A stretch of DNA of 64,000 nt from an uncultured Verrucomicrobiae bacterium (GCA_963702845.1 OY969763.1:1312001-1376000); one strand, 5' to 3'. Positions 17,828-44,981 are shown, counted from the stretch's first letter. The notes: generated by a model from the letters alone, not told the origin. Numbers and translations: made by a program.

Positions 17828-17920
17828 TCAAGGGACCATCTTGGTGGCCGGTTCACTCCAGGGGTCGGCGCCGCCGATTGCGCCGACGCGGAACCAGAGT
17901 TTGGATAATATTTTTGACAT
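17828..17920 (-). pseudogene. Internally deleted remnant of an FN3-terminated protein gene
   Basis: MSKILSKLWFRVGAIGGADPWSEPATKMVP*. WFRVxAI...PWSEP resembles the last two strands of an FN3 domain. Confidence 0.65.
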
Positions 17921-17983
17921 ATGTTTCTTATTTATAGCCATTTATACAATCGTTTCGTTCTGGTTTTCGGAGGTTTTGAGGGT

Positions 17984-18172
17984 TTGTCCAGCGCCGCTGG
18001 ACAAGTGTCCAGAGCTTCTGGCTACTTGGCTGGAGCCGCTGGACGGTTGTCCAGGACGGCTGGCTTCTTGTCCAGAACGGCTGGACAATTGGCCAGAGCC
18101 GCCAGCCACTTGTCCAGCGCCTCTGGACTGTTGGCCAATGCCGCCAGACAGTTGTCCAGAACGGTCGGCTAA
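17984..18172. repeat. 21-bp tandem array A, 9 degenerate palindromic units
   Basis: Unit e.g. TTGTCCAGCGCCGCTGGACAA; exact 21-bp register with no indels. Confidence 0.93.
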
Positions 18173-18207
18173 CGATGATTTTTCCTTAACGGGAAAAGGT
18201 TTTCCGG

Positions 18208-18274
18208 ACCTAAACTATTTTCTGAACTGGGCCTTTCGCCCAATATCCTCAAAGCCATCGATAAGCTCGGCTTC
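18208..18274 (+). repeat. Diverged duplicate of the deaD 5' end (direct repeat of 23327-23393)
   Basis: 62/67 identical; encodes PKLFSELGLSPNILKAIDKLGF; no start codon. Confidence 0.92.
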
Positions 18275-18303
18275 AACAAGGTCCTAATTCAAGTGTCCCT
18301 GTG

Positions 18304-21300
18304 TTAAGGAACGGTCAGGAGATAAAACGTCCGGGGAGTAGATGGATTTGCCGGGAGCGTGATATTGAAACTGCCGGAGCTGTCAAAATTGCCGCTTTGC
18401 ACAACCGGCCATGCCGATAACGGTCGCAAATCCACGTTTGTGGAACTCACTATATGATAAGAGCCGTTGGCCGGACCATTCACCGCTGAAAAACTGATGC
18501 CGGAGAACGCGCCGCCGGTGGTGACCGCGGCGGCATTCGCAAATGATGGCATGGGCGGAGGCGGAGGTGTGTAAGTCAGAGTCACTGTCCGGTTTGCGAT
18601 GTTGTCATATATGTATGCCCCCGAAGGCACGTTGCCCGCGACGAAGGTGCCGGAGCCTGTGCGGCTGGTGTAACTGAGCAGCACCTCGTCGTTGGAGTCG
18701 GCGGGCGCATTGGTTACGTCCACGGTGATGGGGCCGTTCATCGTTATGGCACCGGCAGAGATGAGAGATGAGGCGGCATCACCAAAAGCGCCAGATGCCA
18801 AATCGAAGCCAATTCGACTGCCGCTTCCAAAAGTCAGGTTGCTCATCGTCATTTGTAATTTGGCCCCGATTGGATCGAGGATTACTTCCAGCTCTCCAGC
18901 GGCGACAGTGTAATTCCGGTTGGCGCTGGTTGCGGTGGTGACGGTGAGCAATCCGTTGCTGACTGTGGTTGAACCGGTATAGGAGTTGGTGCCGGTGAGA
19001 TTCAGCGCGCCTGAACCAATCTTCACGAGCGAGCCAGCGCCCGAGATAGCCCGAAGGAGAGTTAACGTGCTGCTTGTCACCACGTCAAAATTGCAGGCTG
19101 CGCCGTTGAGCAAAAAGTTGTTCGATACCGTCAGCGTTGCTGCGGTCGCACTGCTGTTTTGCAACGTGCCGGAATTAAATGTGAGCTGATATGCGGTTTC
19201 GCTGCTGCCGAACAGGTCGAGCGTGCCGCCGCCGAGCACGATCGGACCAGCCGACGTGGCAATGATCTGTCGGCCGCCAGTTCCGGTGACTCGGGCCGTC
19301 CCGCTCGTGTTCACTGTCAATCCACCTTGAACACTGTGCACGTTGGCGCTGCTGGTTTTGTCCATGAGGTATGTTCCGCCGTTGACGACGACAGAGAGGC
19401 CAGCGTTGTTTTTATTGCCGCTGGTTTGAAACGTGCCGTTGCCCTGCAGGGTCATGGTCGCGGCAGCGCCACTGCCGACCGCAGTCATTGCGCCCTCAGT
19501 CTTCAAAATACCGTTGCCTTGCAGCGTTAGCGTCAACGTCGAAACATTCAGCGTTCCCGATCCAAGGTCGAGGTTTCCGGCACCGCCAAAGCTAAAGCTG
19601 GCCGTCCAGGATTCCGCGACGGTAGGGTGGAGTAAAATGTCCGATCCCGATGTGTTATCGATCGTGCCTCCATTGATTGTGAAAATTGTGTTACCGAGAG
19701 CGGAATTGGGGCCGCCGTCGCCACCATTATTGATGTTCAATTTGCCGGAGTTAAGAATCGTGCCACCGCTATAGTTATTGAGTCCCGATAACGTCAATGT
19801 CCCCGGCCCCTGCACGGTCAGTTGATACTTCAGGCCACTATCGGTAATAATGCCGCCGCAGCTGAGCATGTTTGATCGAACGGTCACGGCCAGACTGCTT
19901 CCCAATGTCACGGGGCCGTTGCCTAAATCCAGATTGGTTCGTGAACCCGCGTAGGTGAAGTTTCCGTTCCAATTTTCCTGGTTGGAAAAGTTCAAAATAA
20001 CATTTGTCCCACTGGTATTATCTAGCGTCGCGCCCGGATTCAGCGTGAGGGGCCCGGTGCCGATGGCGGATGGTCCGGTGCCGTCTCCGCCGTTATTGAT
20101 GGCCAGCGTACCCGAATTCACTATTGTGCCTCCGCTATACGTGTTTGCACTGGCGAGAGCGAGCAGTCCCGAGCCTTGTAACAGAACGCTGGTGTTCCCA
20201 GCGATCGCGCCCGAACCGTTGACGCTGTAGGTGGCCGTCCCACCCGCTGTATTGTTGACGGTCAGGCTCCCCGGCTGGACGGTGGTGTTCAACGCGATCG
20301 CCACCGCGCTATTCGCGTTATCATCAAAATTCAGCGCGATTCCGTCCGAATAATTCGTTGCAGTGCCAGCTCCCGACACGATCCAATCTTTTGTGGCGAA
20401 GTCCCACGGGCCGGAGGCCGAGGGTCCCCAGGAAATAGAGACATTGGGCGAACTGCTGACCACCAGGTTGATCGTGTTGCCGTTTTGCACAAGATTGGCG
20501 GTAACTCCTGCAGGCAGCGATGTGATCGACGGCAAGGTGCCGCCCGTCAATGTCAGGGTCCCGCTGCACGTCATCAGTGGATAAGTTCCGACGAGTATCG
20601 CGTTGCCTTCAATGGTCACACTGTCCGAACTGTCCAACGACAGATCGCCGGCAACACGAATTACGCTGGCCAACGGACTGAGTTGAACATTGGCGAAGTT
20701 AAAATCCACTGTGGCGTTGTTTGCCATAGCAAGACCTGCATTGGTCCAGGATTGTCCTTTGGCTCCGAGCACCGTGGAGAGAACCGTTCCGCTATTCATG
20801 CTGACTGTCCCGATTGAAGTCCCAACGGCGTTACTGAAAGTCAATTGCCCGTTGAAGACCGTCGTTGACCCTGCGTAAGAGTTGGAGCCGCCTAAAGTGA
20901 GAATGCCGCCGCCGGTTTTGTTCAAGCCGCCAGGACCAGAAACTCCGCCCGTGAAACTAATATTGAATGGTGTTCCATTCGCGTCGGTGGCTTGCGCGGT
21001 CAGGTTGCCGTTGGTTGTGGTCAAAGTGACGGGCACCGACGAGACCCAATTCGCCGTAGCTCCAATCGTGCCTCCGGAAAGATTCACTGCCAGCGTGTTC
21101 AAGCCAGTCACTCCGTTGACGACAGCCATGCCGTTGACATCGAGGTAGAGCTGCCCGCCGGTCAGGTTGATCTGACAAGGAGGATTATTCGTATAAACCG
21201 CCGCCGCGCTGCCGATCAGGAATCCTTTCGCCGTCGTTATTCCACCGGAAATGTTGATCACCGCTCCGGCATTGGTCGTATACGCTCCCGAACTGATCGC

Positions 21301-22187
21301 CAGCATCGTGAAGTTCGAGATGGTAGAGGCGGTCACCCCGGGCGGCGCGGAAATGCTGGAGCCGATATTAACGGTCCCGCCCAACACATTCAGGGTGCTG
21401 TTATCGGCGAGTTGAAAGGTCACAAAGAGCCATGTTACCAAGCGTGCCCAGCACTCCCGTCCCGCTGACGTTAAAATATCCCGGCTGGCCTCGTGAAATC
21501 TTCATTCCGCCAACCGCGGTGTTCCGCAATGTTCCCCCGCTCAAGTTCCATATCGCCGGTGCAGCTATGTTTCGTCCGAGGGTGAAGGAGTTGAAGGCAA
21601 CCGCTCCACCCGTCTGGTTTACCGTGACGGCATCGGCCAGGAACGTTCCGCCTTCTGTAAAGTTTCCGTTGGTGATGTTGATAGTGCTAAAGGCAGCGCC
21701 GACACCTTTCCAAATGGGGTTGCCGGTCGTGCTCGCCCAACCATTCCCGATCGTCAGCGTTGCGTTGCTGCCCACAGAAATTGTCTGGCCTGTCGTGCTT
21801 AATGGGCAATTCAGTACGACACTGACGTCATTGGACAACGTCATGGTGCTGGTGTTGGTCAACCGTGACCCGGAGAGGGTGTAACCACTCATCCGGAATG
21901 CCACGACTGCGGCGCCGACGTTGCCATCCACATTGATGCTGTAAGTGCCGGGAGTGGACGCGCCAATGATGGCGTCATTGGCATTGGCCCAGGTCTGGTC
22001 GCTGGCGTTGTTATACCAGGCGCTGGCGGCATGCCAGTTTCCGCTGCCATCGGAAGCAGCACCGCCCACAGCCGGGTCCCAGTAAAGGGTGATCGCGCGG
22101 GCTGTGGCCGTTGCCAGAAATAAGGCGGCCAAAGCAAGGGGTGAGATACGAAGCGTATCGGGCGTGAGAGGTTTTAACGGTTTTCAT
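18304..22187 (-). CDS. Large secreted protein with autotransporter-associated beta-strand repeats; two frameshifts (~22183, ~21410)
   Basis: Repeated KxGxGxLTLxGxNxYxGxTxV motifs. ORFs 21401-22132 and 18304-21441 join after removing one base. Removing one A after ATG 22187 gives MKPLKPLTPDTLRISPLALAALFLATATARA. Confidence 0.85.
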
Positions 22188-22336
22188 TTATATATGAACC
22201 GCAGGCGTGCTTGAATAACACGCGCGCATTGGGTATTGGCCGACAATGCGTTGATTGAAAATCGTGGTCAAACTTATATTTTTCTGCGGCTGGCAATTTT
22301 TCCGGGCGCGAGCCGCAACGTTCGTTGGAGCATTCC

Positions 22337-22354
22337 TCAGGGGGCCATCTTGTG
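22337..22354 (-). pseudogene. Terminal codons (KMAP*) of a deleted gene homologous to the 17828 remnant
   Basis: AAG ATG GCC CCC TGA versus AAG ATG GTC CCT TGA; 14/16 nt identical; lies on the same side of a homologous leader. Confidence 0.55.
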
Positions 22355-22418
22355 TATGTTGCGTATTTATAGACGTTTATGCAGTGTTTTTAGGCTGGTT
22401 ATCGGCGGGTTAGGAGGC

Positions 22419-22754
22419 TTGTACAGCGCCGTCGTACACGTGTACAGCGGCGCTGTGCACTTGAACGGAGCCGCTGTGCACTTGAACGGAGCCGCTGTGC
22501 ACTTGAACGGAGCCGCTGTGCACTTGAACGGAGCCGCTGTACACTTGCACGGAGCCGCTGTACACTTGCACGGAGCCGCTGTACACTTGCACGGAGCCGC
22601 TGTACACTTGCACGGAGCCGCTGTACACTTGCACGACGGGACGGTAAAGTGGTACGGAGCCGCCGTCCAAATGGACGCCGCCGCTGTACGGGTGGACGGA
22701 GCGGCTGTACGGGTGGACGAAGGCGCGGTACACTTGCACGGCGGGATTGTTCAA
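22419..22754. repeat. 21-bp tandem array B, 16 units
   Basis: TTGAACGGAGCCGCTGTGCAC x3, one intermediate unit, TTGCACGGAGCCGCTGTACAC x4, degenerate flanking units. Confidence 0.97.
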
Positions 22755-22895
22755 TCGAGCGGACCTCGCGTAAGTGGGGTCACGCGGGGAAAATGGTTTT
22801 ATGAGCCCATAAAACGATAAAATGGGTCAATAAAATCGTTTTATGAGGTGGTGGGGAAATTGATGGAGGTGGCTGGAATCTAGCTATTTGCCGGT

Positions 22896-23276
22896 TCATG
22901 CCCAAAGCCGACTCACAAGTGAAAAAAGAACGGTAATCAGCAATCCAAATGCGACGGTAAAAAGAAGTGCTACAGCGCCTTTCCCAATCGCGCGAAATAA
23001 TCCACCGCCCGGGAATGTGGCGTTTAGGATATAATAATATCCGGACACCGGAACTACCACTTGCGCGATCATCATAAAAGCCGAGTCCCAATTACCACGA
23101 AACAAATCCGGTTTCGCGATTAAGATGAGACCTAGGACGACAGTCACGGCGAACTGAGCGGCCATTACACAGAGGATTTGAATGAAAGGCGATTTGCGCA
23201 TTCCCGCTTTCGTATCTACCAGATGCACATTTTCCATGTTGATGTATAGCTCAAATCCCCTCAAGAATTCCCTCAC
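22896..23276 (-). CDS. Small membrane hypothetical protein (3 TM), lower GC
   Basis: Three hydrophobic segments; start uncertain. Confidence 0.55.
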   Translation of the reverse strand: MREFLRGFELYINMENVHLVDTKAGMRKSPFIQILCVMAAQFAVTVVLGLILIAKPDLFRGNWDSAFMMIAQVVVPVSGYYYILNATFPGGGLFRAIGKGAVALLFTVAFGLLITVLFSLVSRLWA

Positions 23277-23321
23277 ATATTCCCCATTTGTAGCGTATGG
23301 TCACCGTTCGGTAAGACTCAA

Positions 23322-25400
23322 ATGACACCTAAACTATTTTCAGAACTCGGCCTTTCACCCAATATCCTCAAGGCCATCGAGAAGCTCGGCTTCGAACAGG
23401 CCTCGCCCATTCAGGCCGAATCGATCCCGGTCTTGATGTCCGGACGCGATGTCGTCGGCCAATCCCAAACCGGCTCCGGCAAAACCGTCGCCTTCGCCGC
23501 GCCCGCCATCGAGAAGGTCGATGTCGCCGTGCGCGCCGTGCAGATTTTGATTCTTTGCCCGACGCGCGAGTTGGCGGTGCAGGTTTCTGAAGAGGTGCAT
23601 AAGCTGGCGTTTTTCACGCGCGGCATTCATGCGCTGCCCATTTACGGCGGGCAATCGTATGACCGGCAAATTTCGGGGTTGCGCCAGGGCGCGCAGATCG
23701 TCATCGGCACGCCGGGACGTGTCATGGACCACATGCGTCGCGGGACGTTGCGGCTGGATAAGGTGAAGATGGTGATCCTCGACGAGGTGGACATCATGTT
23801 GAACATGGGTTTCCGCGATGACATGGAAACGATTCTCAAAGAGACGCCCAAGGAACGGCAGACGGTGCTGTTCTCGGCGACGATTCCGCGCGCGATCCAG
23901 GATTTGATTTCCAAATACACGCGCGACCCTCAAAGGGTGGCCATCGAGCGCAAGGAGCTGACGGTGCCGACGGTGGAGCAGGTGTATTACGAAGTGGATC
24001 GCCGCTTCAAAATCGAACTACTGACGCGCTTGATCGATATTTATGATCTGAAGCTCGGGATTATTTTCTGCAACACGAAGCGCATGGTGGATGATCTGGT
24101 GGATCATTTGAACGCGCAGGGGTATTCGGCGGATCGTTTGCACGGTGACATGAACCAGCAGCAGCGCGATCGCGTGATGATGAAGTTTCGCAAGAGCGGT
24201 TTGGAATTTCTCGTCGCGACAGACATCGCGGCGCGCGGCATCGACGTGGATGACGTGCAGGTTGTTTTCAATTACGACCTGCCCTACGACGTGGAAGATT
24301 ATTTGCATCGCATTGGCCGAACCGGTCGCGCGGGCAAGAGTGGTCGCGCCATATCGTTTGTTGGCGGGCGTGAGTTGTTTCAAATCCAAAACATCGAACG
24401 CTTCACGAAAGTGCGCATTCACCGTTCGCAAGTCCCCACCGCTCAGGCAGTGGAAGAAGCGCGCGCGAATGTTTTCATCGAAGAGCTGCGCAATATTTTA
24501 AAGACCGGTGAGTTCAAGAAACAGGATCATTTGGTCGAGCGTTTGTTGGAAGAAGGGTTTACTTCGACGGATATTGCGTCGGCGTTGATCCATCAATTGC
24601 AAAACGGCGCCGGCGCACCCGCCAAACCCGCTCCGCAACCTGAAGAGCAACGGCCGCGCTACGACGATTCACGCGGACGTCGCGATGATGGCCCCCGTGG
24701 TTTTAGCGATCGGCGCGAGGAGCGTTTTGACCGACGTGATGAGCGTCCCATGCGCCGCGATGATCGTCCGCCGATGCGTCGTGACGACCGTCCAGCGCGA
24801 GATGAGCGTCCGGCACGATCAAATTTCGCTGGCGACCGTCAAGCCCCGGCAACGCGCAAGCCGTGGACTACCGGCGAACCGCGCCCTGTGCGAACACCAG
24901 CCCCAACAGCAAAACCACAAATCGCGCCAGTTTCTGAAACCGCGCCGGTTGAAAAGATCGAAAAGAAATCCACTCCAAAAGAACCGGCCGTTGCCAAAGC
25001 CCCCGTCGCCAAAGCTCAAGCTCCCGCAGCTGAAACCTCCGCTGCTGTCGAAGAAGCAACGCAACCGGCGCGTGTCGAAAAGCCAAGTCGGCCTGCAAAA
25101 TCTCGCGGCCCCTTCGCCGCACCATTCGGCGCTCCCCCGCCCAAGCCCGCGAGCCGTCGCACACCCGATGAACAAACCCGTCTCTTCATGAATGTTGGCG
25201 TGGAAATGGGAGTCGAAAAAGGCGATGTCGTAGGAGCAATTTTAGGTGAAACAGGATTGCCCGGCGCGACCGTAGGGACAGTGGACCTTCGCGAACGTCA
25301 TGTATTTGTCGACGTCGCGAAAGAGCACGCCAACGCCATTATTTCCAAGTTGAACCGCACGCAAATCAAAGGGCATAAACTTAAGGTGAAGGTCGCTTAG
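23322..25400 (+). CDS. deaD: DEAD-box RNA helicase (DeaD/CsdA type) with C-terminal DbpA RNA-binding domain
   Basis: Q motif, QTGSGKT, PTRELA, TPGR, DEVD, SAT, HRIGRTGRAG; DbpA-like C-terminus. Confidence 0.95.
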   Translation: MTPKLFSELGLSPNILKAIEKLGFEQASPIQAESIPVLMSGRDVVGQSQTGSGKTVAFAAPAIEKVDVAVRAVQILILCPTRELAVQVSEEVHKLAFFTRGIHALPIYGGQSYDRQISGLRQGAQIVIGTPGRVMDHMRRGTLRLDKVKMVILDEVDIMLNMGFRDDMETILKETPKERQTVLFSATIPRAIQDLISKYTRDPQRVAIERKELTVPTVEQVYYEVDRRFKIELLTRLIDIYDLKLGIIFCNTKRMVDDLVDHLNAQGYSADRLHGDMNQQQRDRVMMKFRKSGLEFLVATDIAARGIDVDDVQVVFNYDLPYDVEDYLHRIGRTGRAGKSGRAISFVGGRELFQIQNIERFTKVRIHRSQVPTAQAVEEARANVFIEELRNILKTGEFKKQDHLVERLLEEGFTSTDIASALIHQLQNGAGAPAKPAPQPEEQRPRYDDSRGRRDDGPRGFSDRREERFDRRDERPMRRDDRPPMRRDDRPARDERPARSNFAGDRQAPATRKPWTTGEPRPVRTPAPTAKPQIAPVSETAPVEKIEKKSTPKEPAVAKAPVAKAQAPAAETSAAVEEATQPARVEKPSRPAKSRGPFAAPFGAPPPKPASRRTPDEQTRLFMNVGVEMGVEKGDVVGAILGETGLPGATVGTVDLRERHVFVDVAKEHANAIISKLNRTQIKGHKLKVKVA

Positions 25401-25414
25401 GTCTCGGGAGACGA

Positions 25415-27313
25415 ATGTCCGCAATCCTGACTGCCGCAGATCTTGAAGTCCGGCACAACGAACTCGTTGTGCTCGACCGCGCCTCGCTTGCGATTGAAGA
25501 GAACGGGCGCGTTGGAATGGTCGGTCGCAATGGTTGTGGCAAATCGACTTTCTTAAAAATCATTGCGGGTCAGATCACTCCGGATGCCGGGGAAGTTGTG
25601 CGCCGACGCGATTTGGTGGTCGGTTATTTGCCCCAGGAATTCGCGCTCGACCCGACTCTAACGGTCGAAGGCAACGTCCGCACCGGCGCAAAACAGGTGC
25701 TCGATTTAATTCACGAATTTGAATCGTTGCCAGCCGATTCCAAAAAACATGGTGAACTTGAAGAGCACATTCTGCGGCTGGACGGCTGGGGAATTGATCG
25801 ACACATCCAAACCGCGATGGCGCATCTGAGTTGTCCCGCTGCTGATCGCCAAATCTCAACATTAAGCGGCGGTGAAAAACGGCGCGTCGCGTTGTGCAGG
25901 GCAATTATTGCGCAGCCTGACCTTCTGATTCTCGATGAGCCGACAAACCATCTCGATACAGAGTCAATCGAGTGGTTGGGCGAATTCCTGCTAAACTATC
26001 GCGGTGCATTTTTGATGGTCACGCACGACCGCTATTTTCTGGATCGCATTACCAATAGCATCGTCGAACTGGCCAATGGCCGATTTTATTCCTACACCGG
26101 TAACTACACCGATTATCTACAAGCCAAAGAGCAACGACAGGCCGCCGAAGAATCGGTCGAACACGCGCGGCAGACGTTTTTGAAACGCGAACTGGAATGG
26201 GTTCGCAGTGGCGTGCAGGCCCGTCGCACAAAAAAGAAAGATCGCTTCGAACGCTATTACGAAGTCGCCGCCCAATCCGGTCCTAATGTTGAGAGCGATA
26301 TCGAACTGGTCATTCCGCCGCCGCCCCCATTGGGCAATCGCGTGGTTGAACTAACTCGCGTCGGCGTGGAACTGGGGGGGCGCACTTTGTTTTCCGGATT
26401 GGATTTGGAATTCAAGGCCGGCGATCGCATCGGGATCACTGGCCGAAATGGACTTGGTAAGACGACGTTGTTGAAAGTCGTCTTAGGCGAGTTGCAACCG
26501 ACCGAAGGCACGGTGAAGATCGGGCAGTTGACTCAGTACAATTACGTCGACCAGGGCCGATTGCAGTTGCGCGATGACCGGACGGTTCTCGAGGAGATTA
26601 GCGATGGAACGGAGTTCGTGGTGTTCGGCGATGAAACCCTGTCCCTGCGCGCATATCTGAAACGATTTCTGTTCACCGACGATCGCATCAGCACGCAGGT
26701 GAAATTTCTCAGCGGCGGCGAGCGAAGCCGGTTGTTGTTGGCGCGAATTCTCAAGAACGGCGGTAACTTTCTCGTGCTCGACGAACCGACAAATGATCTG
26801 GACCTGCCGACGTTGCGCATTTTGGAAGAGGCGCTGGTGGCGTTCCCCGGCGTTGTGCTGGTTGTCAGCCACGACCGTTATTTTTTGAACCGTGTTTGCA
26901 CCGGTATCCTTGCGTTCGAAGGGCAGGGGAAAGTGCATTACAGCGTTGGTGATTACGATTATTACCTCGAAAAGCGGGTGCGCACTGCCGTGTCGCAACC
27001 GGTCGAGCCAAAGGTTAAGGCCGGCGAACCTAACGAACCGAAGAAGCAATCTTCGTCACGTCCGCGCAAGTTGTCGTTCAAGGAACAGCGCGAGTTGGAC
27101 GGAATGGAAGCGGCGGTGCTTGCCGCCGAGGAGAACGTCGCTCGCATTGAAGCGTTGTTCGTCGATCCTGATTTTCATCGTAAATACGGCCAGCGGATTG
27201 ACGAGCTGCAAGCTGAGTTGGCGGCCGAAAAAGAGCGGATAGCGAAGCTCTACGAACGCTGGCAGGAACTTGAGGCTATTCGCACCGCATCCGCCACGAA
27301 CCCCGTGTCTTAA
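25415..27313 (+). CDS. ABC-F family ATPase (Uup/EttA-like)
   Basis: Two ABC domains (GRNGCGKS, GRNGLGKT; LSGGE twice), C-terminal coiled coil RKLSFKEQRE, no TM. Confidence 0.93.
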   Translation: MSAILTAADLEVRHNELVVLDRASLAIEENGRVGMVGRNGCGKSTFLKIIAGQITPDAGEVVRRRDLVVGYLPQEFALDPTLTVEGNVRTGAKQVLDLIHEFESLPADSKKHGELEEHILRLDGWGIDRHIQTAMAHLSCPAADRQISTLSGGEKRRVALCRAIIAQPDLLILDEPTNHLDTESIEWLGEFLLNYRGAFLMVTHDRYFLDRITNSIVELANGRFYSYTGNYTDYLQAKEQRQAAEESVEHARQTFLKRELEWVRSGVQARRTKKKDRFERYYEVAAQSGPNVESDIELVIPPPPPLGNRVVELTRVGVELGGRTLFSGLDLEFKAGDRIGITGRNGLGKTTLLKVVLGELQPTEGTVKIGQLTQYNYVDQGRLQLRDDRTVLEEISDGTEFVVFGDETLSLRAYLKRFLFTDDRISTQVKFLSGGERSRLLLARILKNGGNFLVLDEPTNDLDLPTLRILEEALVAFPGVVLVVSHDRYFLNRVCTGILAFEGQGKVHYSVGDYDYYLEKRVRTAVSQPVEPKVKAGEPNEPKKQSSSRPRKLSFKEQRELDGMEAAVLAAEENVARIEALFVDPDFHRKYGQRIDELQAELAAEKERIAKLYERWQELEAIRTASATNPVS

Positions 27314-35268: not shown

Positions 35269-35348
35269 ATAGCAACACCACGAACCTCAACAAGCCGGTG
35301 GTTGGTCATTACAACAACACCACCGGCATTTTGTTGTCCCCCCAATTT

Positions 35349-35855: not shown

Positions 35856-35995
35856 CTGTTTTTTTGACTCAGGGAAACCTTGTCATTAGAATCAGGCGGC
35901 TTCCCTGATTGTCAAACCAACGGTTATCGAGTTTTTTTGACAGGGATTAGTACGCCCGGTTTTTACCATATGGGCGCGGAGGAACTAAAAAAAAT

Positions 35996-36578
35996 ATGAA
36001 ATCAAAACTATTCGTTGCGGCGGCGGCTTTTAGCCTGTGCGCATTTTCAACATTCGCAGAATAGTGTGACGACGACTACCACTACAAGTTGGTGGAACCA
36101 GCATGCGTGTTACGACCGCGATTCTATAAAATACAACGCGAACGAACTTCAACTCGATCTGTTCGGCACCTACAACCATGCCATCGCTAACTTCGATGAC
36201 ATCTTTGAGAATTCATGGAAACATGGCCATTGGGGTGGTGGCGTGGGCATGAATTATTTCTTCACAAGATATATCGGTTTCGGCGCGGACACGTTTTTCC
36301 AGGGGACACGGACATTTCTTCAACAACTGTCGCTGGCAATCTGTTTGTGCGCTTGCCGATCGGTAACTCCGGCTTTGCACCGTACATTTACGGTGGCGCT
36401 GGTTGGCGGGATGGAAGCACGATTCCGTTTGGGACCGATACGTTTACGGCGGATGGTGGCGTCGGCCTTGAATACCGTTTCAACCCGCATCTCGGCCTTT
36501 TCGGTGACGTCCGTTATACCTGGACCGACAAGAACGCTGATGAATGTCTCGCCCGGGCCGGTTTCCGGATCGGACTAA
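35996..36578 (+). CDS. Outer-membrane beta-barrel protein with several frameshifts
   Basis: Signal peptide MKSKLFVAAAAFSLCAFSTFA, then GGGVGMNYFFTRYIGFGAD and FAPYIYGGAG...GVGLEYRF in different frames. Confidence 0.7.
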
Positions 36579-36625
36579 TAATAAATAAATACGCAAAACT
36601 GCAGACGTGCAGTCGCGCATTGAAC

Positions 36626-36667
36626 CGAGCGCCCCGACACCAAATGTCGGGGCGCTCGTTCTGTTTT
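36626..36667 (+). terminator. Rho-independent terminator
   Basis: 14-bp stem CGAGCGCCCCGACA/TGTCGGGGCGCTCG, 5-nt loop, then TTCTGTTTT. Confidence 0.8.
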
Positions 36668-36721
36668 GCCCAAAAGCTGAATTGCTAACCGGGGCTATTT
36701 CTGGCAAACAATCTCGCTCTT

Positions 36722-38294
36722 ATGGTGAAAGTCTTTTGTAAATCGCTGGCCTTGGTTGCAATTGGGGTCGGCGTTTTTGTTGTCATGCCGCGGACGAGAA
36801 TGACCCCGTTGTCGGCTCGTTATCATTTCATCGGCACGTCTCAGCTCACGGCTAAAAATTACGATACACCCGCAAAGTCTTCAACCTGCCCAGTTCGGTT
36901 GAATACCGCGATCTCGTGTTAAACCGGTCTCGCCGGACAAATCGCCGTCATTCGATTTCCGAAAATTCTGCCGTAGTCCGCGCCGATGTTGAACGATCTC
37001 TTGCCAACGAATCAACTGGTCTTTTCGGCGTGCCCGGTGCCGGAGCCCGAATCTTTCGTCATCGCCGCTCGCACTTCCAACAGATCGCGCCGCAGTCTGG
37101 AAACAGAATCTCGGCAAGTCCTCCGACAATGTTAATTCAGTGCATCGTCCATCAAGAGGGCGAATGGTTGATCGTCGCGCGCGGCGCGGCGTTGAAAACA
37201 GCAGAAGACAAATTTACTGCCGAAATCCGTAAAAATCATCGTCCGGTGCCCGGCGTTGAAGGACACCATTCTCGAAGCAAACATCGATTGGCCGCGCTTG
37301 AGCAACGTTCCGGCATCGCTGCGCTGCCGTTCAAACCGGCCGTGCTCAAATCAAAGTCTCTCCGAAAGGCAACCATCTTCGCACCGAAGTTCACGCGCAT
37401 TATCCGCAAGCGATCGCATGGAAATCGCAGCAATGGCAACTGCCCACCGAAACCATCCACGATCCCTTGTGAGTTTCACCGCCGGACAAGACGTCGGCTG
37501 CGTTTATGAAGCCGTCGCAATTGGCGAGCGCATCGGCGAAAATCCGTTCACCAACCAATTTTTCCTCTGGGCCAATCTGAACCTTCCGTTCGAAACTTCG
37601 GCGCTGTTCCCGATGAAAAACGCGCAGCGCCACTTGCAATCACTGGGTCGGGAATTGCCTACCAGGTTCAATGCGGAATTGAAGAAGAACTATAATGGCC
37701 AATTGAAATACCTCGAAGAGAACAAACAATTGGTCTGGCAGGGGGTGCCAATCCTCGCTCCATTCGTCAAGCCGATTCACGAAAAAGCCGGAGACTTTTT
37801 TTGCGTTGGAACGTTCGCATTCAATCGCCAGGGCCGCGCCCGCCCGCCGGAACTCTGGTCGCAATTCAAAGGACGCACCGATCTGGTATATTACGACTGG
37901 GAAATTGCTGGTCCGCGGTTTGCTGCAGTGGCGCATGGTCAGGCCGTTGTTGCCGATCTTCCCTGTGAAACGCGCCGGCGAAGATTCAGTTCCGCGCATC
38001 ACAAAAACTAACAAGGTGTCACATACCCCCACGGCTATCGTGGACAGTTGGATCAGTGATTTGATCCCGGGCTCTCGCCATCAAATAAAATCACTCGAAT
38101 GGCAACGTCGTGACCGAGATGACTCGCAACAGCGCCACCGATTACACGGTCGTTCGCAGTTCTCAATTTGGTTTTACCGGCATCGAGTTGTTCCTGTTGT
38201 CCCATTGGCTTGCTGATACACATCCGATGGAAGTGCGACGACCGGCACGCCGGTATCAATGCCCCCAGGATCCGTCCGCGTGCCTGTAAAATAA
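36722..38294 (+). pseudogene. Secreted hypothetical protein gene fragmented by many frameshifts
   Basis: Signal-like start; protein-like segments alternate among the three + frames (e.g. QFFLWANLNLPFE, KGRTDLVYYDWEI). Confidence 0.55.
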
Positions 38295-38327
38295 CTGGGC
38301 CGCGAACGTGTAGCTTACGAACACGCT

Positions 38328-39065
38328 ATGTTGAAATTCGGCGTAAACATCGACCACGTAGCCACGCTCCGTGAAGCGCGCTATCGCGGACTCGCCAAAG
38401 GCGAGCCCGACCCGATTGGCGCGGCCATCGTCTGTGAAGCCGCGGGTTGCGATGGCATTACTGCACATCTGCGCGAAGACCGCCGTCACATGCAGGACCG
38501 CGACATCACGCGTCTGCGCGACGTCGTAAAGACGCGGCTCAATTTAGAGATGGCGAACTCGCCAGAGATCATTGCCTTCGCCTTGAAAACCAAGCCCGAG
38601 ATCGTTTGCATTGTCCCGGAGCGCCGGCAAGAGGTGACGACGGAAGGTGGATTGGACGCCGCCGGCCATCGCGCCTCGTTGACCGAGACCTGCAAAAAAA
38701 TGAAGGACGCCGGGATCGAAGTCAGTCTGTTCATCGCGCCCGATCCCGCGCAGGTGGAGGCGTCAGCACAAATTGGTGCGCAATTCATCGAGCTTCACAC
38801 AGGTTCGTTTGCTGAACATTTCGATGATCCGGCTGCGCAGAAACGTGAGCTGGATCGACTCATTGCAGCCGCCAACCAGGCACATCAACTCGGGCTGAAA
38901 GTGAATGCCGGGCACGGCTTGAATTACAAGAACACAGAAGTTTTGTTTGCCGTCCCGCACATGGTTGAGTTGAACATCGGCCACAGTATCATCAGCCGCG
39001 CTGTGTTTGTCGGCCTCGACCGCGCCGTCCGCGAGATGTTAGGCATCATGGAGAAATATCCCTAA
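38328..39065 (+). CDS. pdxJ: Pyridoxine 5'-phosphate synthase
   Basis: [40 protein letters not shown]. Confidence 0.97.
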
Positions 39066-39068
39066 GCC

Positions 39069-39446
39069 ATGATCCTTGGCACCGGCATCGACATCATCGA
39101 AGTCGAACGCATTGAAGCGTCGCACGAAAAGTTTGGAGAGCGATTTCTCAATCGCATCCTCGTTCCCGGTGAGATGGAATATTGCCTCTCCCACAAGAAG
39201 CCCGGCCCCTTTCTCGCGGCGCGATTTGCCGCGAAGGAAGCTGTCTCAAAAGCCTTCGGTACGGGCATCGGCGCGCACCTCAGTTGGCAGGACATTGAAG
39301 TGAAGCGCAAAGAATCCGGAGAACCCTACGTCGTCATGCATGGCAAAGGCGCGGAGCTGCTGAAACAACGTGGCGCCCGCATCGTGCACCTCACCATCAG
39401 CCACACCGAAAAGCACGCCACCGCCATGGCGATCCTTGAATCGTAA
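39069..39446 (+). CDS. acpS: Holo-ACP synthase
   Basis: GTGIDIIE, RFAAKEAVSKAFGTG, TISH. Confidence 0.96.
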   Translation: MILGTGIDIIEVERIEASHEKFGERFLNRILVPGEMEYCLSHKKPGPFLAARFAAKEAVSKAFGTGIGAHLSWQDIEVKRKESGEPYVVMHGKGAELLKQRGARIVHLTISHTEKHATAMAILES

Positions 39447-39514
39447 TCTGCAAGCACCGTAGGTGCGGAATTGTCTATGATTCCTTTCTGGAGAAATACA
39501 GTAGCTACAAAAAC

Positions 39515-39586
39515 TTGACAGACAATCTCGTCACTCTGTATAATGTAGTTCGGAAATTCCTAATGAATTTCCGAACTACATTATAC
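39515..39586 (+). promoter_or_regulatory. Consensus sigma70 promoter overlapped by a perfect 22-bp inverted repeat
   Basis: TTGACA 39515-39520, N18, TATAAT 39539-39544; repeat arms 39538-39559 and 39565-39586. Confidence 0.6.
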
Positions 39587-39682
39587 CTGCCGGAGCGACA
39601 TGGCTTTTACTTTGTAAGTGATTGAACGTGTGTAGTTTGCAAGAGTTTCGTTTTATACGTCTCAAGTCTAAAAACGCTGAGA

Positions 39683-41572
39683 CTAGTTTTTAGACTGAGA
39701 CTTCAACCACACCGCCATATCACCGTCGTCGCGATTGTCCCATGCGAAATACGGTATCGCCCGGGTGTTACCTTTCAACATGGTGACACCGCCTAACAAA
39801 CTTGGACGATATTCCGGCGTCAGCGAGTCGTTGCTCGATAAGGTGAGGGTGCGTGCGCGGTCGTCGTTGTCGTCGCCTTCGAAGCAATACACGACCGGGC
39901 CGCGCTGGATCGCCACTCGGCCGCGATCGGCGGCGACTTTCTCGATGGCTTTCACACGCCGAACCGGCATCGGCAGATTGAGCTGAACAACGTCGCCGGA
40001 TTTCCATTTTCGATCGATTGTCGCGTAGCCGTTTTCAATTTTCGTTTTCGTTGATTTGCCGTTCACCAAAATCGTGACTGGCTGGGCTTTGTCTTCGAAT
40101 TGATAGAGGTCGTTTGTCGAGGAGTTGCCGCACCAATTCGGAATCCGCAATGCGAGGGTGAACCTGGAGTTTTTTTGCAGGTCGAGGGTGATCTTCACCT
40201 CGCCATCCCACGGGTATTTGGTCTCTTCTTTCAACGAAACGGTCGTGCCCGCTACATCTATGTGCGCGCGGCTCGCGGTGTATTGACTGACGAGAATTTG
40301 TTTATCGTCGTGCGCGTAGAGATAGCCACCGATCGTTGGCAGAAACCGCACGACGTTGACGGGGCAACAGGCGCAGCCGAACCATTGTTGGCGATGATGT
40401 TTGCCGGCGGATTCGAGCGGGTTGACGTAGAAGAATTTTCCTCCGTCAAGCGAGACGCCGCTGAGCGCGCCATTGTAGAGGACGCGTTCGACGACGTCGG
40501 CGTATTTGGCATCGCCGTGCAGCAAGGCCATGCGTTGGTTCCAAAAGGCCATACCGATACTCGCGCACGTTTCGCAATAGGCAGATTCATTCGGTAGATC
40601 ATACGCGACCGTAAAGCCTTCGTTCTTGGCGGACGGACCGATGCCGCCAGTCAGATACATTTTGCGTTGGGTAACGTCGTTCCAAATCGCGTCGAGTGTG
40701 GCGATGTATTTTGGATTGTGCGTGATCGCGGCGATGTCGGCGACGGCGCTGTAGAGATACATCGCACGCACGGCGTGGCCCTGAATTTCACGCTGGTCTT
40801 CGATGGGAACGTGGTCCTGGCAATACTCGCCGTAGAGCTGGCGTTTGCAGTCATGGCCGCGTTCAGCGATGAAGAATTCCGCAAGCTTCAGGTATTTGTC
40901 GTTGCCGGTGATGCGCCACAGTTTTACCAGCGCGAGTTCGATTTCTTCGTGGCCGGGGACGTCGTGTTTTTTTTCGGGACCGAAGACGCTATCAATGTGA
41001 TCTGCGACACGAATGGCGACGTCGAGGAGTTTGCGTTTGCCGGTGGCCTGGTAATAGGCGATCGCGCCTTCGATCAGGTGACCGGCGCAGTAGGTCTCGT
41101 GCATGGACTTTTCGTTGGTCCAACGTTTACCGAGCTCTTTGTTGATGGTGTAGAAGGTGTAGAGATAACCGTCGGGTTGTTGGGCGGCGGCGATTTTGTC
41201 GATGACTCCGTCGATGGTTTTTTCAAGTTCCGGATCGCGTTGTTGCGAGAGCGAGTAAGCTACGCCTTCGATCACTTTGTAAACGTCCGAGTCATCGAAG
41301 AAAATCCCTTCGAATTTCCCCGGCATGAGTCCGGCCGCTTTTGCGAAATTATTGATGCGGCCTTCGCAAAACTGCAGATCGTGCGGAACAATCTTCTCGC
41401 GATTCATTTTGATGCGCGGCGCCCAGAACTCGCTGTCGATTTGGACGTCGGTGAAAGGGACCGCGACGAGCTCTGATTGTTTCGCGGCGAAACAACTGAG
41501 CGCGATGACAAAGAAGAAAAGCGGGAGCAAGCTCCACGCATTCCATATGCAATTCTTAGTCCAACGGCTCAC
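39683..41572 (-). CDS. GH127 beta-L-arabinofuranosidase-like protein
   Basis: FDDSDVYK, HETYCAGH, GHEEIE, GHAVR, YCETCASIG, CACCP. Confidence 0.92.
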   Translation of the reverse strand: MSRWTKNCIWNAWSLLPLFFFVIALSCFAAKQSELVAVPFTDVQIDSEFWAPRIKMNREKIVPHDLQFCEGRINNFAKAAGLMPGKFEGIFFDDSDVYKVIEGVAYSLSQQRDPELEKTIDGVIDKIAAAQQPDGYLYTFYTINKELGKRWTNEKSMHETYCAGHLIEGAIAYYQATGKRKLLDVAIRVADHIDSVFGPEKKHDVPGHEEIELALVKLWRITGNDKYLKLAEFFIAERGHDCKRQLYGEYCQDHVPIEDQREIQGHAVRAMYLYSAVADIAAITHNPKYIATLDAIWNDVTQRKMYLTGGIGPSAKNEGFTVAYDLPNESAYCETCASIGMAFWNQRMALLHGDAKYADVVERVLYNGALSGVSLDGGKFFYVNPLESAGKHHRQQWFGCACCPVNVVRFLPTIGGYLYAHDDKQILVSQYTASRAHIDVAGTTVSLKEETKYPWDGEVKITLDLQKNSRFTLALRIPNWCGNSSTNDLYQFEDKAQPVTILVNGKSTKTKIENGYATIDRKWKSGDVVQLNLPMPVRRVKAIEKVAADRGRVAIQRGPVVYCFEGDDNDDRARTLTLSSNDSLTPEYRPSLLGGVTMLKGNTRAIPYFAWDNRDDGDMAVWLKSQSKN

Positions 41573-41841
41573 GGTGTAATCTCCAGATCATCTAAACCGG
41601 AGTCCTCCATAAAATTCTCATAAAACCTGAGCGTATCAGTGCGGGCGAAACCGGCGCGTTCGTCCGCTATCAGCTCTTTAAGCGCTTCCCGAATCGCTGC
41701 GAGTTCCTCGGGTGTGGCCGAACGCAAATTGAAAGCGATATCTTCCAAAGCCTTGATTGCATTGTCTGGATCAACGATATCGTCTCCAGCCAATTCAAGG
41801 AACGCTGCAGCCCCGATTAAAGCCTTCGCAAGTGTTTTCAT
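41569..41841 (-). CDS. Small acidic hypothetical protein
   Basis: Tightly coupled to both neighbours (3-nt gap and GTGA overlap). Confidence 0.6.
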   Translation of the reverse strand: MKTLAKALIGAAAFLELAGDDIVDPDNAIKALEDIAFNLRSATPEELAAIREALKELIADERAGFARTDTLRFYENFMEDSGLDDLEITP

Positions 41842-41844
41842 TTC

Positions 41845-43304
41845 CTACTCATTATGCGGAACTTTCACCGTGCCTCCTCCCACGAATTCGCGGATGACGG
41901 CGTCGCCTGGGATGATGTCGTAGCTGGTGACTTGGTCGCGCGTGAGGCCTTCGATGGAGTCGAGCAGCGTCTTTGACGCGTTTGTGGCGGATGTGGGCGT
42001 CGAGGAAGCCGGGGTAGGAATCCAACGCTTCGGCGGGCGGGAAGTATCCGCTCGGGCCGGAGAAAAATGGCTTGAGCGCGGGCAGGTCGAACGGGAAGCC
42101 GCCGTTGACGACGTGGTCGGCGGTGCCGTTGAGCGGGATGATGCTGAAGAGTTCGCCGGCGCGGACGTAATGCCAGTGCAACAAGGTGAGCAGGGGACTG
42201 TGATTGCGATGCTGCACGTCGCGCAACATGCGGCGGACGAGGCGCACGTCGGTAAACTTCGTCAACGCGCTTCGTGCTGCCGTCGCCTTCGTACATCGCG
42301 TTCTGCGTTTCGATGTAGAGCTTGAACTGCGCGCTCGCGTCGATGCCTTCGGTGATCGGCGGATACAAACCGTGCAAGCAATCGAGCAACAGGATCTGGT
42401 CCTTCTCGAGCTTCACCGGTTTGGTGGTGGTGCGGCGGCCTTCTTTGAAACTGTAAACCGGTTTCTCGATCGTCTCGCCGTTGAGCAACGCGACGAGGTG
42501 CTGGTTCAAGAGCTGGATGTCCAAGGCTTCGGGCGTTTCGTAATTGCGATCGTTGATCCAATCGGTCGGATGTTCCACGAGCGACCAAAAATAATCGTCG
42601 AGGTTCAACATCAGGAAACGCAGGCCTTGTTTCTGAAGACGTTCGGTGAGCTTGACGGTCGTGGTCGTCTTGCCGCTGGAACTCGGGCCGCTGACCCACA
42701 TCATGCGCAACTTGTCGCCTTTGTTGAGGCGGGCCATGACTTTGGCGGCGGCTTCGTCGAGGGACTTCTCGTAATTGCCGAGGGACTCTTCGACGAGCCC
42801 CTTGAGTTTGCCGCGTCGCACCACTTCGTTCAGGCCGGCGACGGTGTCGACGCCGCGGGCGCGATTCCACTCGAGCACCTTGCTCATGGCCGCGTCCGGG
42901 AAACCGTTGCCGACGAACGTTTCCTTCGTGACCGCGCCTTCGCGCAACCAATGGCGGCCCCAACGATAACAGGCGTAAGCATCGGCCGTGTTCTGGAAAC
43001 CGTAACTGCGCAGCACGTGCAGGACGGTGTCCTGGATCATCTCGATGGTCGGCGGGAAATTGGTGATGAGATGGTGCTCGTCGGAATTGAGGCCGACGAT
43101 GACGGCATCGGCGAGAAACCCGGCGAGGGCTTCATCGGAGTTCCACGTCGCGAAAAGTTTCTCGTTGATGCCGGTGAGGCAATCTTGTTGGAAGCCGCCG
43201 ATGGATTGGCCGGCGCGGAGGATGGCGCGGCGGATTTTGTCGGCATCGAATTTGACGAGCGCCCGATTGCGCTTTTGAACTTTGACAATGCGATTTTGAA
43301 CCAT
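41845..43304 (-). CDS. ATP-cone plus uridine-kinase-like (PRK/UK) fusion protein; frameshifts at ~42265 and ~41972
   Basis: VQKRNRALVKFDADKIRRAI...IEMIQDTV...AYACYR (ATP-cone); SGPSSSGKTT, LDDYF, YETPEALD, DVRLVRRMLRD (Udk-like); repaired end VIREFVGGGTVKVPHNE*. Confidence 0.85.
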
Positions 43305-43381
43305 GGGCGAGTATAGGGAAAGTGGGAGCGAGAGTGAAAGTGAAAGTGCGTCACATCGTTGAGAAACATCAATGTTTGCGG

Positions 43382-43397
43382 CCACAAGATGTAGTGC
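43382..43397. promoter_or_regulatory. Putative NrdR box
   Basis: CCACAAGATGTAGTGC versus consensus acaCwAtATaTwGtgt; weaker copy at 43412. Confidence 0.5.
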
Positions 43398-43425
43398 GTG
43401 AAGTTAAATCACCACAAGGGTGCGA

Positions 43426-43494
43426 GCACTAACGATCCAAAGGCGTCGATAAACTCAAGGGACAGTCGGTGTTGCCTGCGGGGCGGTGTTAGGC
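43426..43494 (-). mobile_element. Truncated attC-like site at the 3' end of the DUF805-like gene
   Basis: Minus strand GCCTAAC (RYYYAAC) ACCGCCCCGCAGGCAAC...; TTAGAC (TTRRRY) lies 10 nt before the gene's ATG. Confidence 0.5.
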
Positions 43495-43823
43495 TGCTTT
43501 TGAGCAGGACACAAAAGCAGGAACATCACGAGTAAAAGGTTGGCCAATGGAACTAAAAGCAAAAGAGCAACCCAACGATTCGTACCAGTCGAAGCGAGTC
43601 TGGGGATAATCGCGAAACGAACGAAGCAGACGACCAAAAAGAGAAATGCCACAAACCACAAGCCGAACAACAGAGTAAGCACAGGCAAATTCTCTTTGCC
43701 CCGGCCGGTGGAAAAATACAAAGCCCACCGAAAGGAAACCTGGAGAGCCATTGAAGCGATGACGCCAAGAATAAACCAGCCCAGAAAAGCTGCTCTACCA
43801 ATCGGCTTTGGAAATGTGCTCAT
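43455..43823 (-). CDS. DUF805-like small membrane protein
   Basis: PIGRAAF, RLASTGTNRW, LLLVPLANL; 3 TM; lower GC. Confidence 0.75.
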   Translation of the reverse strand: MSTFPKPIGRAAFLGWFILGVIASMALQVSFRWALYFSTGRGKENLPVLTLLFGLWFVAFLFLVVCFVRFAIIPRLASTGTNRWVALLLLVPLANLLLVMFLLLCPAQKQPNTAPQATPTVP

Positions 43824-43912
43824 ATTTCTGGTGGTCTAATAATTAATGTACGACAACTGTTCGCATGTTTTCGAAAGATGAACAAGGCTTTTTGCTGCGG
43901 GCACGGAATGGG

Positions 43913-44034
43913 AAAGCGGCAGGGGAGTCGAACGTCGGCCTCGCATGCAGCCGCAGTCCAAAAGCTTCGCCGGTTTCGGGGCGCGGTGGATTGTCGCGGC
44001 AGCGTCTTGGAGTGCGCCAGTCCTCTGGCGCTTT
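43913..44034. repeat. Inverted pair of REP-like palindromes
   Basis: Right copy GCGTCTTGGAGTGCGCCAGTCCTCTGGCGCTTT; left copy AAAGCGGCAG...GCCGCAGTCCAAAAGC is a diverged inverted version. Confidence 0.6.
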
Positions 44035-44081
44035 CCCATTGGCGGTTCAGCGGAGGGTTTATCTATGCGCCGGATAGCATC

Positions 44082-44270
44082 GGGCGCACGCCGGAGTGTT
44101 TACGGCGCACAGTTAGAGGCAGGCGGCGTGAGTCTTGGAAAAACAGGCGTGGGCCGGAAGCATTACGGCGTGCCACTTAATAAAATCGGCGTGCGTCTTT
44201 ACATATAAGGCGTGCGACTGAATTTATCAGTCGTGCACCGGAAATGTTCCGGCGTGCGGTTATTCGCTTC
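44082..44270 (+). repeat. 21-bp periodic array C: conserved GGCGTG/GGCGCA core plus variable remainder, 9 units
   Basis: Units start at 44082, 44103, 44124, 44145, 44166, 44187, 44208, 44229, 44250. Confidence 0.9.
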
Positions 44271-44360
44271 AGCCAGCACCGCGAAGCCTTCGTCGGCCCC
44301 AACCAACCAGTCAACTAAGTGGTTGACTGTCAAGCGCAGGTTGATATTTTGAGCGGCCTT

Positions 44361-44981
44361 ATGGCTAAATCGGACTTCATGCCCAAACAGGACGGCGCTA
44401 TCGCCACCTGGCACGATTGCTTCACCCACGGTTTGCCCGGCCTCGCCGCCAAATACGGCATCAGTGCGGGCGATGTTGCTACCGCTGTCACCCATAATTC
44501 TACCTACAAAACAAATTTGACCGATGCCAACGCCAAGGTCGCCGCGGCCCAGGCCTCCGTGTCCGAGAAGGACGCCAGTCGCGACACCGCCGTCTCGTTC
44601 GCGCGCGCGGTGGGTCGCCGCATCAAGGCGCATCCGGATTACGACCCCGCCGACGGCGCGTTGCTTGGCATCATCGGGCACGATCGCACGGTGGACTTGC
44701 GCACGCGCGCGCCGCACTTGCTCGGGCGCGACCACGGGCGCGGCCGGGTGGAGTTGCGGTTCAAGAAGTCTTCGGCCGATGGCATCAAGGTTTATTGCAA
44801 GCGCGGCGAGGAGACGACGTGGACGCATATTTCGACGAACACGCGCACAAAGTTTTTCGATGAACGCCCGTTGTTGGTGGCGGGCAAGCCGGAGCTGCGC
44901 CTTTATCGCGCGCATTATATTTTGCGCGACGCGGACATCGGCGAGTACAGCCAGGAATTGGAAATCACCTGCGCGCCGTGA
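44361..44981 (+). CDS. Hypothetical protein: N-terminal helical domain plus C-terminal FN3-like beta domain
   Basis: Ala-rich amphipathic helices, then VELRFKK..GIKVYCKR..W..FFDERP..LYRAHY..GEYS..ITCAP; no signal peptide. Confidence 0.8.
   Translation: MAKSDFMPKQDGAIATWHDCFTHGLPGLAAKYGISAGDVATAVTHNSTYKTNLTDANAKVAAAQASVSEKDASRDTAVSFARAVGRRIKAHPDYDPADGALLGIIGHDRTVDLRTRAPHLLGRDHGRGRVELRFKKSSADGIKVYCKRGEETTWTHISTNTRTKFFDERPLLVAGKPELRLYRAHYILRDADIGEYSQELEITCAP

Follow-up and report, generated by a model that had tools for sequence, protein, structure and literature searches.

Within a stretch of 64,000 nucleotides (nt) from the genome of an uncultured Verrucomicrobiae bacterium (GCA_963702845.1, OY969763.1:1312001-1376000; hereafter the window, with positions counted from its first letter), three non-coding arrays of 21-bp tandem units, named A1, A2 and A3, lie upstream of a protein gene or of what is left of one (Table 1). 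Arrays of the same period recur in this position across phyla, upstream of genes of two protein families, here called F1 and F2, and this association of array and gene is far beyond chance. The period of 21 bp corresponds to two turns of B-DNA. We propose a module made of the non-coding array, a short leader with the putative promoter, and a single F1 or F2 gene for a protein of about 207 residues (aa), predicted to have a helical domain for dimerisation at its N-terminus and an FN3 domain at its C-terminus. The array would act in cis as double-stranded DNA, namely as successive short sites, often with dyad symmetry, that are aligned along one face of the helix immediately upstream of the promoter and that a two-fold-symmetric protein would occupy cooperatively, setting the transcription of the gene. 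As a whole, this reading is given a probability of about 40%.

The periodicity of the arrays in the window is well above that of shuffled sequence. Identity at lags 21 and 42 is 0.62 and 0.68 for A1, 0.81 and 0.79 for A2, and 0.51 and 0.49 for A3, while in 1000 dinucleotide shuffles per array, scored at their best lag between 5 and 45, the maximum never exceeded 0.42. The resulting z values for lag-21 identity (16, 38 and 10, respectively) bear out an earlier sequence-only reading of the window, made by a model, which had recognised three arrays in exact 21-bp register at these positions. Tandem Repeats Finder (TRF) reports periods of 21 and 42 for A1 and A2, the latter with 13.9 copies and 84% matches; A3 is not detected by it because only a short G+C-rich core is conserved in each unit, in which about 7 nt of core are followed by about 14 variable nt. 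The A1 unit is a 7-5-7 inverted repeat that can alternatively be read as 7-2-7 spanning the unit borders. A1 and A2 are homologous, as their leaders of about 63 nt align and their units share a common register, and the A1 leader is also homologous to the leaders of the F1 paralogues of this genome. Indeed, the same type of leader and array precedes intact F1 genes elsewhere in the genome. The gap between array and gene amounts to 90 nt at A3, 63 nt at A1 and 67 nt at A2. The A3 leader contains a 6-6-6 palindrome (44310-44327) overlapping a sigma-70-like match, TTGACT-16-TATTTT (44323-44350), that ends 11 nt 5' of the ATG and is weak evidence for a promoter (one match, against a mean of 0.5 in shuffles).

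The array is tied to the gene well beyond the window. An upstream 21-bp array was found by TRF and an autocorrelation scan at all five intact F1 paralogues of the same genome, and arrays also lie beside several truncated copies. At F1 loci in further genomes and in metagenomes, the best lag between 5 and 45 was determined in the 700 nt upstream, all scanned loci having at least 350 nt of upstream sequence. The top lag was 21 or 42 in 43 of 48 loci, 35 of which also had an identity of at least 0.5, whereas none of 51 regions downstream of F1 loci reaches this threshold; these counts overstate the number of independent cases because of near-duplicate loci (L045/46, L050/51, L042/77 and L085/86/88). 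The named F1 records come from Methylomonas, Methylobacter, Verrucomicrobia, Chthoniobacterales, Haloferula and a Tannerella metagenome-assembled genome. Likewise, 7 of 11 F2 loci with enough sequence have the array upstream (six of the seven from one genome), and none of 12 downstream regions reaches an identity of 0.5. The sequence-only reading had taken array and gene for one recurrent unit and had expected upstream arrays to be enriched among homologues; a strong enrichment is what was found, in this genome, at the other F1 loci and for F2. Both families are patchily distributed: of 401 sampled genomes from the phylum, 4 have F1 and 6 have F2. Neither was found in 72,556 plasmid records or in the viral contigs searched. 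No recurrent partner gene was present among 60 flanking open reading frames (ORFs) from different loci.

A genome-wide count gives the reverse view of the same association. Blocks of lag 21 number 37, against 14 for lag 18, 11 for lag 20, 1 for lag 22 and 15 for lag 24, and 10 of the 37 have an F1 or F2 profile match within 1.2 kb. Among the 37 are also A2 and one gene-less copy, both of the same kind as the F-associated arrays, as well as a few orphan arrays. About a dozen blocks were set aside as they lie in long ORFs and are probably coding heptads, and two more as pure 7-nt microsatellites that a lag of 21 detects as a multiple of 7, (CCATTTT)n at about 4104595-4104700 and (GAGTGAC)n at 5404094-5404150 of this genome. 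One orphan array of about ten 21-bp units (5103802-5104124; about 2303-2625 of locus L104) is flanked on one side by the gene of a hybrid histidine kinase (poly-HAMP/GAF, 2097 aa) and on the other by a REC-PAS gene (305 aa). The cores conserved in this array and in A3 overlap, and both fit a GGCG-YR-CGCC dyad. Two further arrays (1071649-1071967 and 181211-181425) have a CGTTGG..CCAACG dyad in common, one of them located some 100 nt 5' of a transporter-like ORF of 462 aa, while the other retains the upstream flank of an F1 module whose gene is lost.

The proteins themselves belong to large, unnamed groups. A profile search over 1.84 billion cluster representatives assigns to F1 4087 clusters at 50% identity with E ≤ 1e-3, of which 1790 reach E ≤ 1e-10; almost all of the proteins measure 200-210 aa. 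A word-indexed search with the 206-aa F1 protein of the window, whose start codon and ending (ITCAP*) are as the sequence-only reading gave them, returned 79 relatives, all annotated as hypothetical and including Methylomonas and Methylococcaceae. The same protein has no match in Pfam, NCBIfam, PHROGs or PADLOC, and only unnamed clusters were found in the ESM Atlas. Its AlphaFold2 model (predicted local distance difference test, pLDDT, 90) shows N-terminal helices at residues 11-28, 36-90 and 96-102 followed by an FN3 sandwich at residues 120-204, a fold assigned with VIA Z = 11.7 and a root-mean-square deviation of 1.9 over 88 residues (Foldseek E = 1.7e-5). Whole-model structure searches retrieved generic FN3 domains only, and a PDB profile search with the helical N-domain gave coiled-coil noise at E ≥ 0.16.

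The second family, F2, was reached through the remnants. That a 30-aa minus-strand ORF ending in WSEPATKMVP* lies beside A1 and a bare KMAP* beside A2, as had been read from the sequence, was confirmed. Another, longer copy of the KMVP scrap in this genome pointed to P0080, an intact protein of 208 aa. It is a member of F2, a family with 392 or more relatives. The C-terminal consensus of F2 is SDPATK[MIV][VA]P; both remnants of the window fit it, and the two endings align with the C-termini of array-associated FN3 proteins. In particular, the A1 remnant is a start codon joined to the final strands of an F2-type FN3 domain and is matched by the F2 profile at E = 1.2e-7 (profile positions 181-207); HKMAP* is too short for a profile match, and to judge from the sequence the rest of the F2-type gene at A2 has been deleted. 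The sequence-only reading had supposed that the same kind of gene follows each array, which is correct for the layout, while by family the remnants are F2 and the 206-aa gene F1. Further F2 C-terminal scraps, without arrays, lie at 1696398, 5256290, 2656108 and 1694204 of this genome. The F2 model (pLDDT 87) has helices at residues 13-27, 40-92 and 97-102 plus the FN3 domain, with layout and positions as in F1, and F2 matches PF00041 at E = 6.4e-6. Profile-profile comparison of F1 with F2 gives a weak link along the long helix (E = 1.7e-4, probability 49%). The two families are treated here as one architectural superfamily, probably of common descent.

Structure prediction also supports a symmetric F1 homodimer. 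The predicted pair scored 0.74, against 0.00 for the best of three controls, a score attained by 20 of 30 proteins whose solved structures are same-chain pairs and by 1 of 23 whose structures are single chains. Between runs, at least 95% of contacts agree, and the partner has a pLDDT of 86 or more. According to the prediction, the two chains pack antiparallel into a helical bundle whose dyad lies near residues 59-63; residues 4-7 of both copies, part of the almost invariant N-terminus MAKSDY.P, belong to this interface.

Across loci, the arrays keep their geometry while their sequence turns over. They measure 92-376 bp and hold 4-18 units, whose sequence differs at almost every locus and can be aligned only between recent paralogues; even within one genome several motif types occur, two in one Methylomonas methanica strain and about four in the genome studied here. 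Dispersed palindromic repeats of the repetitive extragenic palindromic (REP) or miniature inverted-repeat transposable element (MITE) type were rejected as an explanation, the array sequences being locus-specific with only the period in common. The only clear departure from this period among the 48 loci is found in Haloferula luteola (L038, 1809-2072), where twelve near-identical 22-bp units precede an F1 gene of a longer subfamily; single 22-nt units also occur inside one paralogous array. Among five Methylomonas orthologues with gene identities of 85-97%, both insertions or deletions within the array are exactly 42 bp. In addition, the arrays are self-complementary: 34 of 42 fold better than the control at z < -1.64 (median z -2.7), the control being a permutation of the 21 columns, identical in every unit, that preserves period, composition and divergence.

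Some features are specific to single groups of loci. The Methylomonas array is immediately preceded by an intrinsic terminator and followed by a well-conserved block. A conserved box of about 17 nt, of the type GCGAC-ATTT-RGCCGCA, is located between array and putative promoter in Methylomonas and related loci (L028-L031, L042 and L048) and is common to subfamilies with differing arrays. At one F2 locus (L092, genome G048), each 21-bp unit upstream of the gene has two GATC sites about one helical turn apart, and a link to Dam-type methylation is possible there.

If the array acts as duplex DNA, the most economical candidate for the symmetric protein occupying it would be the module's own product, the predicted antiparallel homodimer, because the motif differs at every locus, even between paralogues, and no conserved neighbour gene is present; the module would therefore be autoregulated. 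This part of the proposal, taken within the duplex-DNA reading, is doubtful. A bolder form of it, likewise doubtful, would make F1 and F2 a new class of bacterial DNA-binding proteins that polymerise on their own 21-bp-phased array into a nucleoprotein filament. The rod-shaped antiparallel dimer would carry its conserved N-terminal segments to the dyad in a ribbon-helix-helix-like manner, and the FN3 domains at both ends of a rod about 42 bp long would connect neighbouring dimers. Such a module would be portable, self-specifying in protein and site, and autoregulating, and it could serve as a programmable regulator of other genes with a matching array, for example those beside the orphan arrays.

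Several observations weigh against the array acting as a platform for a dimeric protein, or against the module's product being that protein. Between array and ATG lie anywhere from 20 to 417 nt. Perfect consensus dyads with arms of at least 5 occur in 16 of 42 arrays and reach p ≤ 0.05 in only 6 of 42; the arms are imperfect, and the dyad signal becomes visible only when whole arrays are folded against period-preserving controls. Arm and loop lengths vary by locus, although constant ones would be expected if the dimer had a single conserved geometry. The long leader that separates array and gene in Methylomonas contains a terminator-like hairpin (L028, 2234-2257), a position that is also compatible with a separate transcript of the array. 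At least three arrays of this genome stand before or beside genes other than F1 and F2. As to the proteins, the median isoelectric point is near neutral (about 6 for F1 and for F2), and searches of Pfam, NCBIfam, PHROGs, PADLOC and PDB profiles linked neither F1 nor F2 to any known family of DNA binders. The motifs vary although the F1 N-terminus is almost invariant, so that specificity does not track the protein, and the same type of leader and array heads both F1 genes and F2 scraps in this genome.

The array could instead be transcribed, either as a long 5' leader or as a separate non-coding RNA of tandem 21-nt hairpins, which would act as stabilisers or gates of the mRNA, or else as a scaffold on which the rod-shaped dimer forms a ribonucleoprotein. 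This is unlikely on the present evidence. It would account for the excess of self-complementarity; stems of 5-7 bp closed by loops of 4-7 nt are possible in many units, several arrays end just 20-60 nt before the ATG and leave little space for a promoter, and in Methylomonas the terminator before the array and the hairpin after it could delimit a transcript of about 400 nt. However, folding energy has no strand preference (the sense strand folds better in 24 arrays, the antisense in 17) and there is no G skew, and duplex DNA therefore fits better than RNA. Moreover, several motifs are palindromes with loops of 0-2 nt, unable to form RNA hairpins, no co-variation of arms is visible between units, and a fixed period of 21 nt is not explained by RNA folding alone. 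Rfam provides no match to the arrays: the only match at gathering score in the window is a tRNA, and nothing beyond E = 0.4 appears at nine paralogous loci.

If the array is duplex DNA, its sites could also be phased operators for host transcription factors encoded elsewhere, for example BvgA-like response regulators that polymerise on one face of the DNA, the FN3 gene being merely their commonest target. Units of 21 or 22 bp with dyads that run up to the promoter resemble BvgA-type sites, orphan arrays stand beside two-component genes in this genome, and an AAAG/CTTT dyad is common to five of the six F2 arrays of one other genome (G142). Nevertheless, the module travels alone across at least three phyla without a conserved neighbour, and its motifs differ between modules of one genome, so that each would need its own host factor. 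No LytTR-domain protein was found either: PF04397, for which control genomes responded, has 0 matches in the single-contig genome (estimated completeness 89.8%). A host factor as the binder is considered distinctly unlikely.

The shape of the DNA alone, be it intrinsic curvature, a supercoil-sensitive structure or an insulator, as may result from any tandem repeat of integral helical turns, would explain why the period is conserved and the sequence is not, and why the array lies directly upstream of the promoter. A wedge model with assumed parameters gives 25 of 32 arrays slightly more curvature than their aperiodic shuffles; they are no more curved than random tandem 21-mers (15 of 32; medians 0.965 versus 0.961). 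Cruciforms do not extrude readily from arms as short as 4-7 bp, which we count against this explanation, and it leaves open why one protein superfamily should carry the arrays. We regard it as very unlikely.

The arrays might also lack a function and merely accompany the gene, as products of replication slippage at a hotspot; this is suggested by their fast change in copy number and sequence and by the many decayed copies and gene scraps in this genome. Yet the same period precedes two families across phyla despite complete sequence turnover, slippage alone does not favour a period of 21, and lag-21 blocks outnumber those of other lags in this genome (37, against 11-15 at lags 18, 20 and 24 and a single one at lag 22), all of which makes this explanation highly improbable. 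Finally, the proposal that the arrays encode heptad-repeat peptides (21 nt being seven codons), for example in an antisense ORF starting back-to-back with the ATG of the gene, can point to open frames through A1 and A2, to at least one stop-free frame in 39 of 42 arrays and to a back-to-back ATG common to six paralogous leaders, but is almost certainly wrong, as no open frame spans A3, which is interrupted by stop codons in each of its six frames, or two other arrays, a 22-bp period and 22-nt units within an array occur, no strand or reading frame recurs across loci, the Methylomonas array is 350-560 nt away from the gene and is not covered by any ORF of at least 90 aa, and stop-free frames are expected by chance in G+C-rich periodic DNA.

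The duplex-DNA reading can be set beside the known systems nearest to it in mode of action (ParR-parC, omega, BvgA, iterons and LytTR). In ParR-parC of R1 and pSK41 and in the omega heptad arrays, repeats of system-specific sequence lie upstream of the gene of the binder, a small symmetric dimer that coats the array cooperatively, and the array doubles as the operator of the promoter. The likeness lies in tandem short repeats directly upstream of the gene; binding by the module protein is only proposed here. The known binders are ribbon-helix-helix proteins with a partner NTPase on plasmids, whereas the module has no partner gene and no plasmid record. The module protein has no ribbon-helix-helix match in Pfam or PDB profiles, and the predicted F1 dimer, with both N-terminal segments at the dyad, would resemble that fold in topology only. 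No ParA/ParM-type NTPase is a conserved neighbour, the single CbiA/ParA-like domain among the 60 flanking ORFs being in a DRTGG-domain protein.

BvgA, a response regulator of the NarL/FixJ family, binds phased multi-dimer sites, about 3-6 of them with one heptad motif, at the Bordetella fha and ptx promoters. Inverted-repeat units every two helical turns up to the core promoter are the likeness, and A1-type units can be read as 7-2-7 inverted heptads; BvgA, by contrast, acts on many genes from a locus apart from them, whereas the arrays have locus-specific motifs and up to 18 units and belong with a single protein superfamily. Plasmid iterons (R6K, pSC101, F and P1) have units of about 17-22 bp spaced at about 22 bp beside the gene of their binder, and thus share with the arrays a system-specific unit sequence, a similar spacing and an adjoining gene. 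They are, however, direct repeats at replication origins beside a winged-helix Rep gene, whereas the arrays have dyad units in several chromosomal copies, at least five intact modules being present in this genome, and the gene adjoining the array has no Rep or winged-helix match. LytTR operators (AgrA, ComE) consist of 9-bp direct repeats with 12-bp spacers, usually two or three with one consensus; the 21-bp centre-to-centre spacing and the location upstream of the regulated promoter are shared, while this genome is without a LytTR-domain match. A CRISPR array, already rejected by the sequence-only reading, remains rejected: CRISPR repeats measure about 23-55 bp and alternate with unique spacers of similar length, whereas here the whole period is 21 bp, with tandem units of at most about 14 variable nt each, and no Cas family occurs in 19 ORFs around the arrays or in the 60 flanking ORFs, the rest of the genome not having been searched for cas.

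Table 1. Arrays, leaders, gene and gene remnants in the window
Feature	Position	Strand	Description
Remnant ORF by A1	17828..17920	-	30 aa, ends ...WSEPATKMVP*
Leader of A1	17921..17983	-	63 nt; TATAAA box about 30 nt before ATG
Array A1	17984..18172	no strand	9 units x 21 bp; aligns in register with five other arrays of the genome
Remnant by A2	22337..22354	-	HKMAP*, last residues and stop of an F2-type gene
Leader of A2	22355..22418	-	homologous to A1 leader
Array A2	22419..22754	no strand	about 16 units x 21 bp; most uniform of the three
Array A3	44082..44270	no strand	9 units x 21 bp, upstream of the intact F1 gene
Leader of A3	44271..44360	+	90 nt, between A3 and F1 ATG
Intact F1 gene	44361..44981	+	206 aa, ATG at 44361, ends ITCAP*

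The surroundings of the arrays in the window record some local history. Beyond A1, the segment 18209-18290 is an 81%-identical copy of the first 26 or so codons (23327-23410) of a DEAD-box helicase gene, which begins at 23322, beyond A2; the block of gene scar, leader, array and helicase start has therefore been duplicated. The two blocks flank a PATR-repeat gene (18304-21441) and a 243-aa ORF. Between A2 and a convergent 126-aa membrane ORF, a strong A/T-flanked hairpin (22808-22848) has the appearance of a bidirectional terminator. A short interspersed repeat with copies elsewhere in the genome (43912-44040) separates a DUF805 gene from A3. The sole soil metatranscriptome run that matched (8% of words) gave one 167-nt contig over 43993-44112, mostly of interspersed repeat, which is uninformative on the transcription of A3 or its gene.

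In full-text searches, judged on listings and the openings of abstracts, no publication describing such arrays or this protein family came up, and the combination of gene and control element is apparently undescribed. The present analysis adds to it the second family F2 with the same layout, the identification of the window remnants as F2 scraps, a range that includes Verrucomicrobiota-type and methanotroph genomes, the excess of self-complementarity over period-preserving controls, the 42-bp steps in orthologous arrays, the 22-bp exception and the predicted dimer. The superfamily comprises thousands of sequence clusters without a name, a Pfam model or a known function, with members in Verrucomicrobiota, methanotrophic Gammaproteobacteria and Bacteroidota, and its cis element is defined by geometry, namely two helical turns per unit, rather than by sequence. 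The array rule gives annotators a simple means to recognise F genes and their control regions. The module is compact (about 1 kb) and portable, and cultivable carriers exist in Methylomonas. If the protein does bind its own array, the module would represent a new DNA-binding architecture and a natural modular set of orthogonal protein-operator pairs; if the array works instead as RNA or through the shape of the DNA, it would be a new class of regulatory element.

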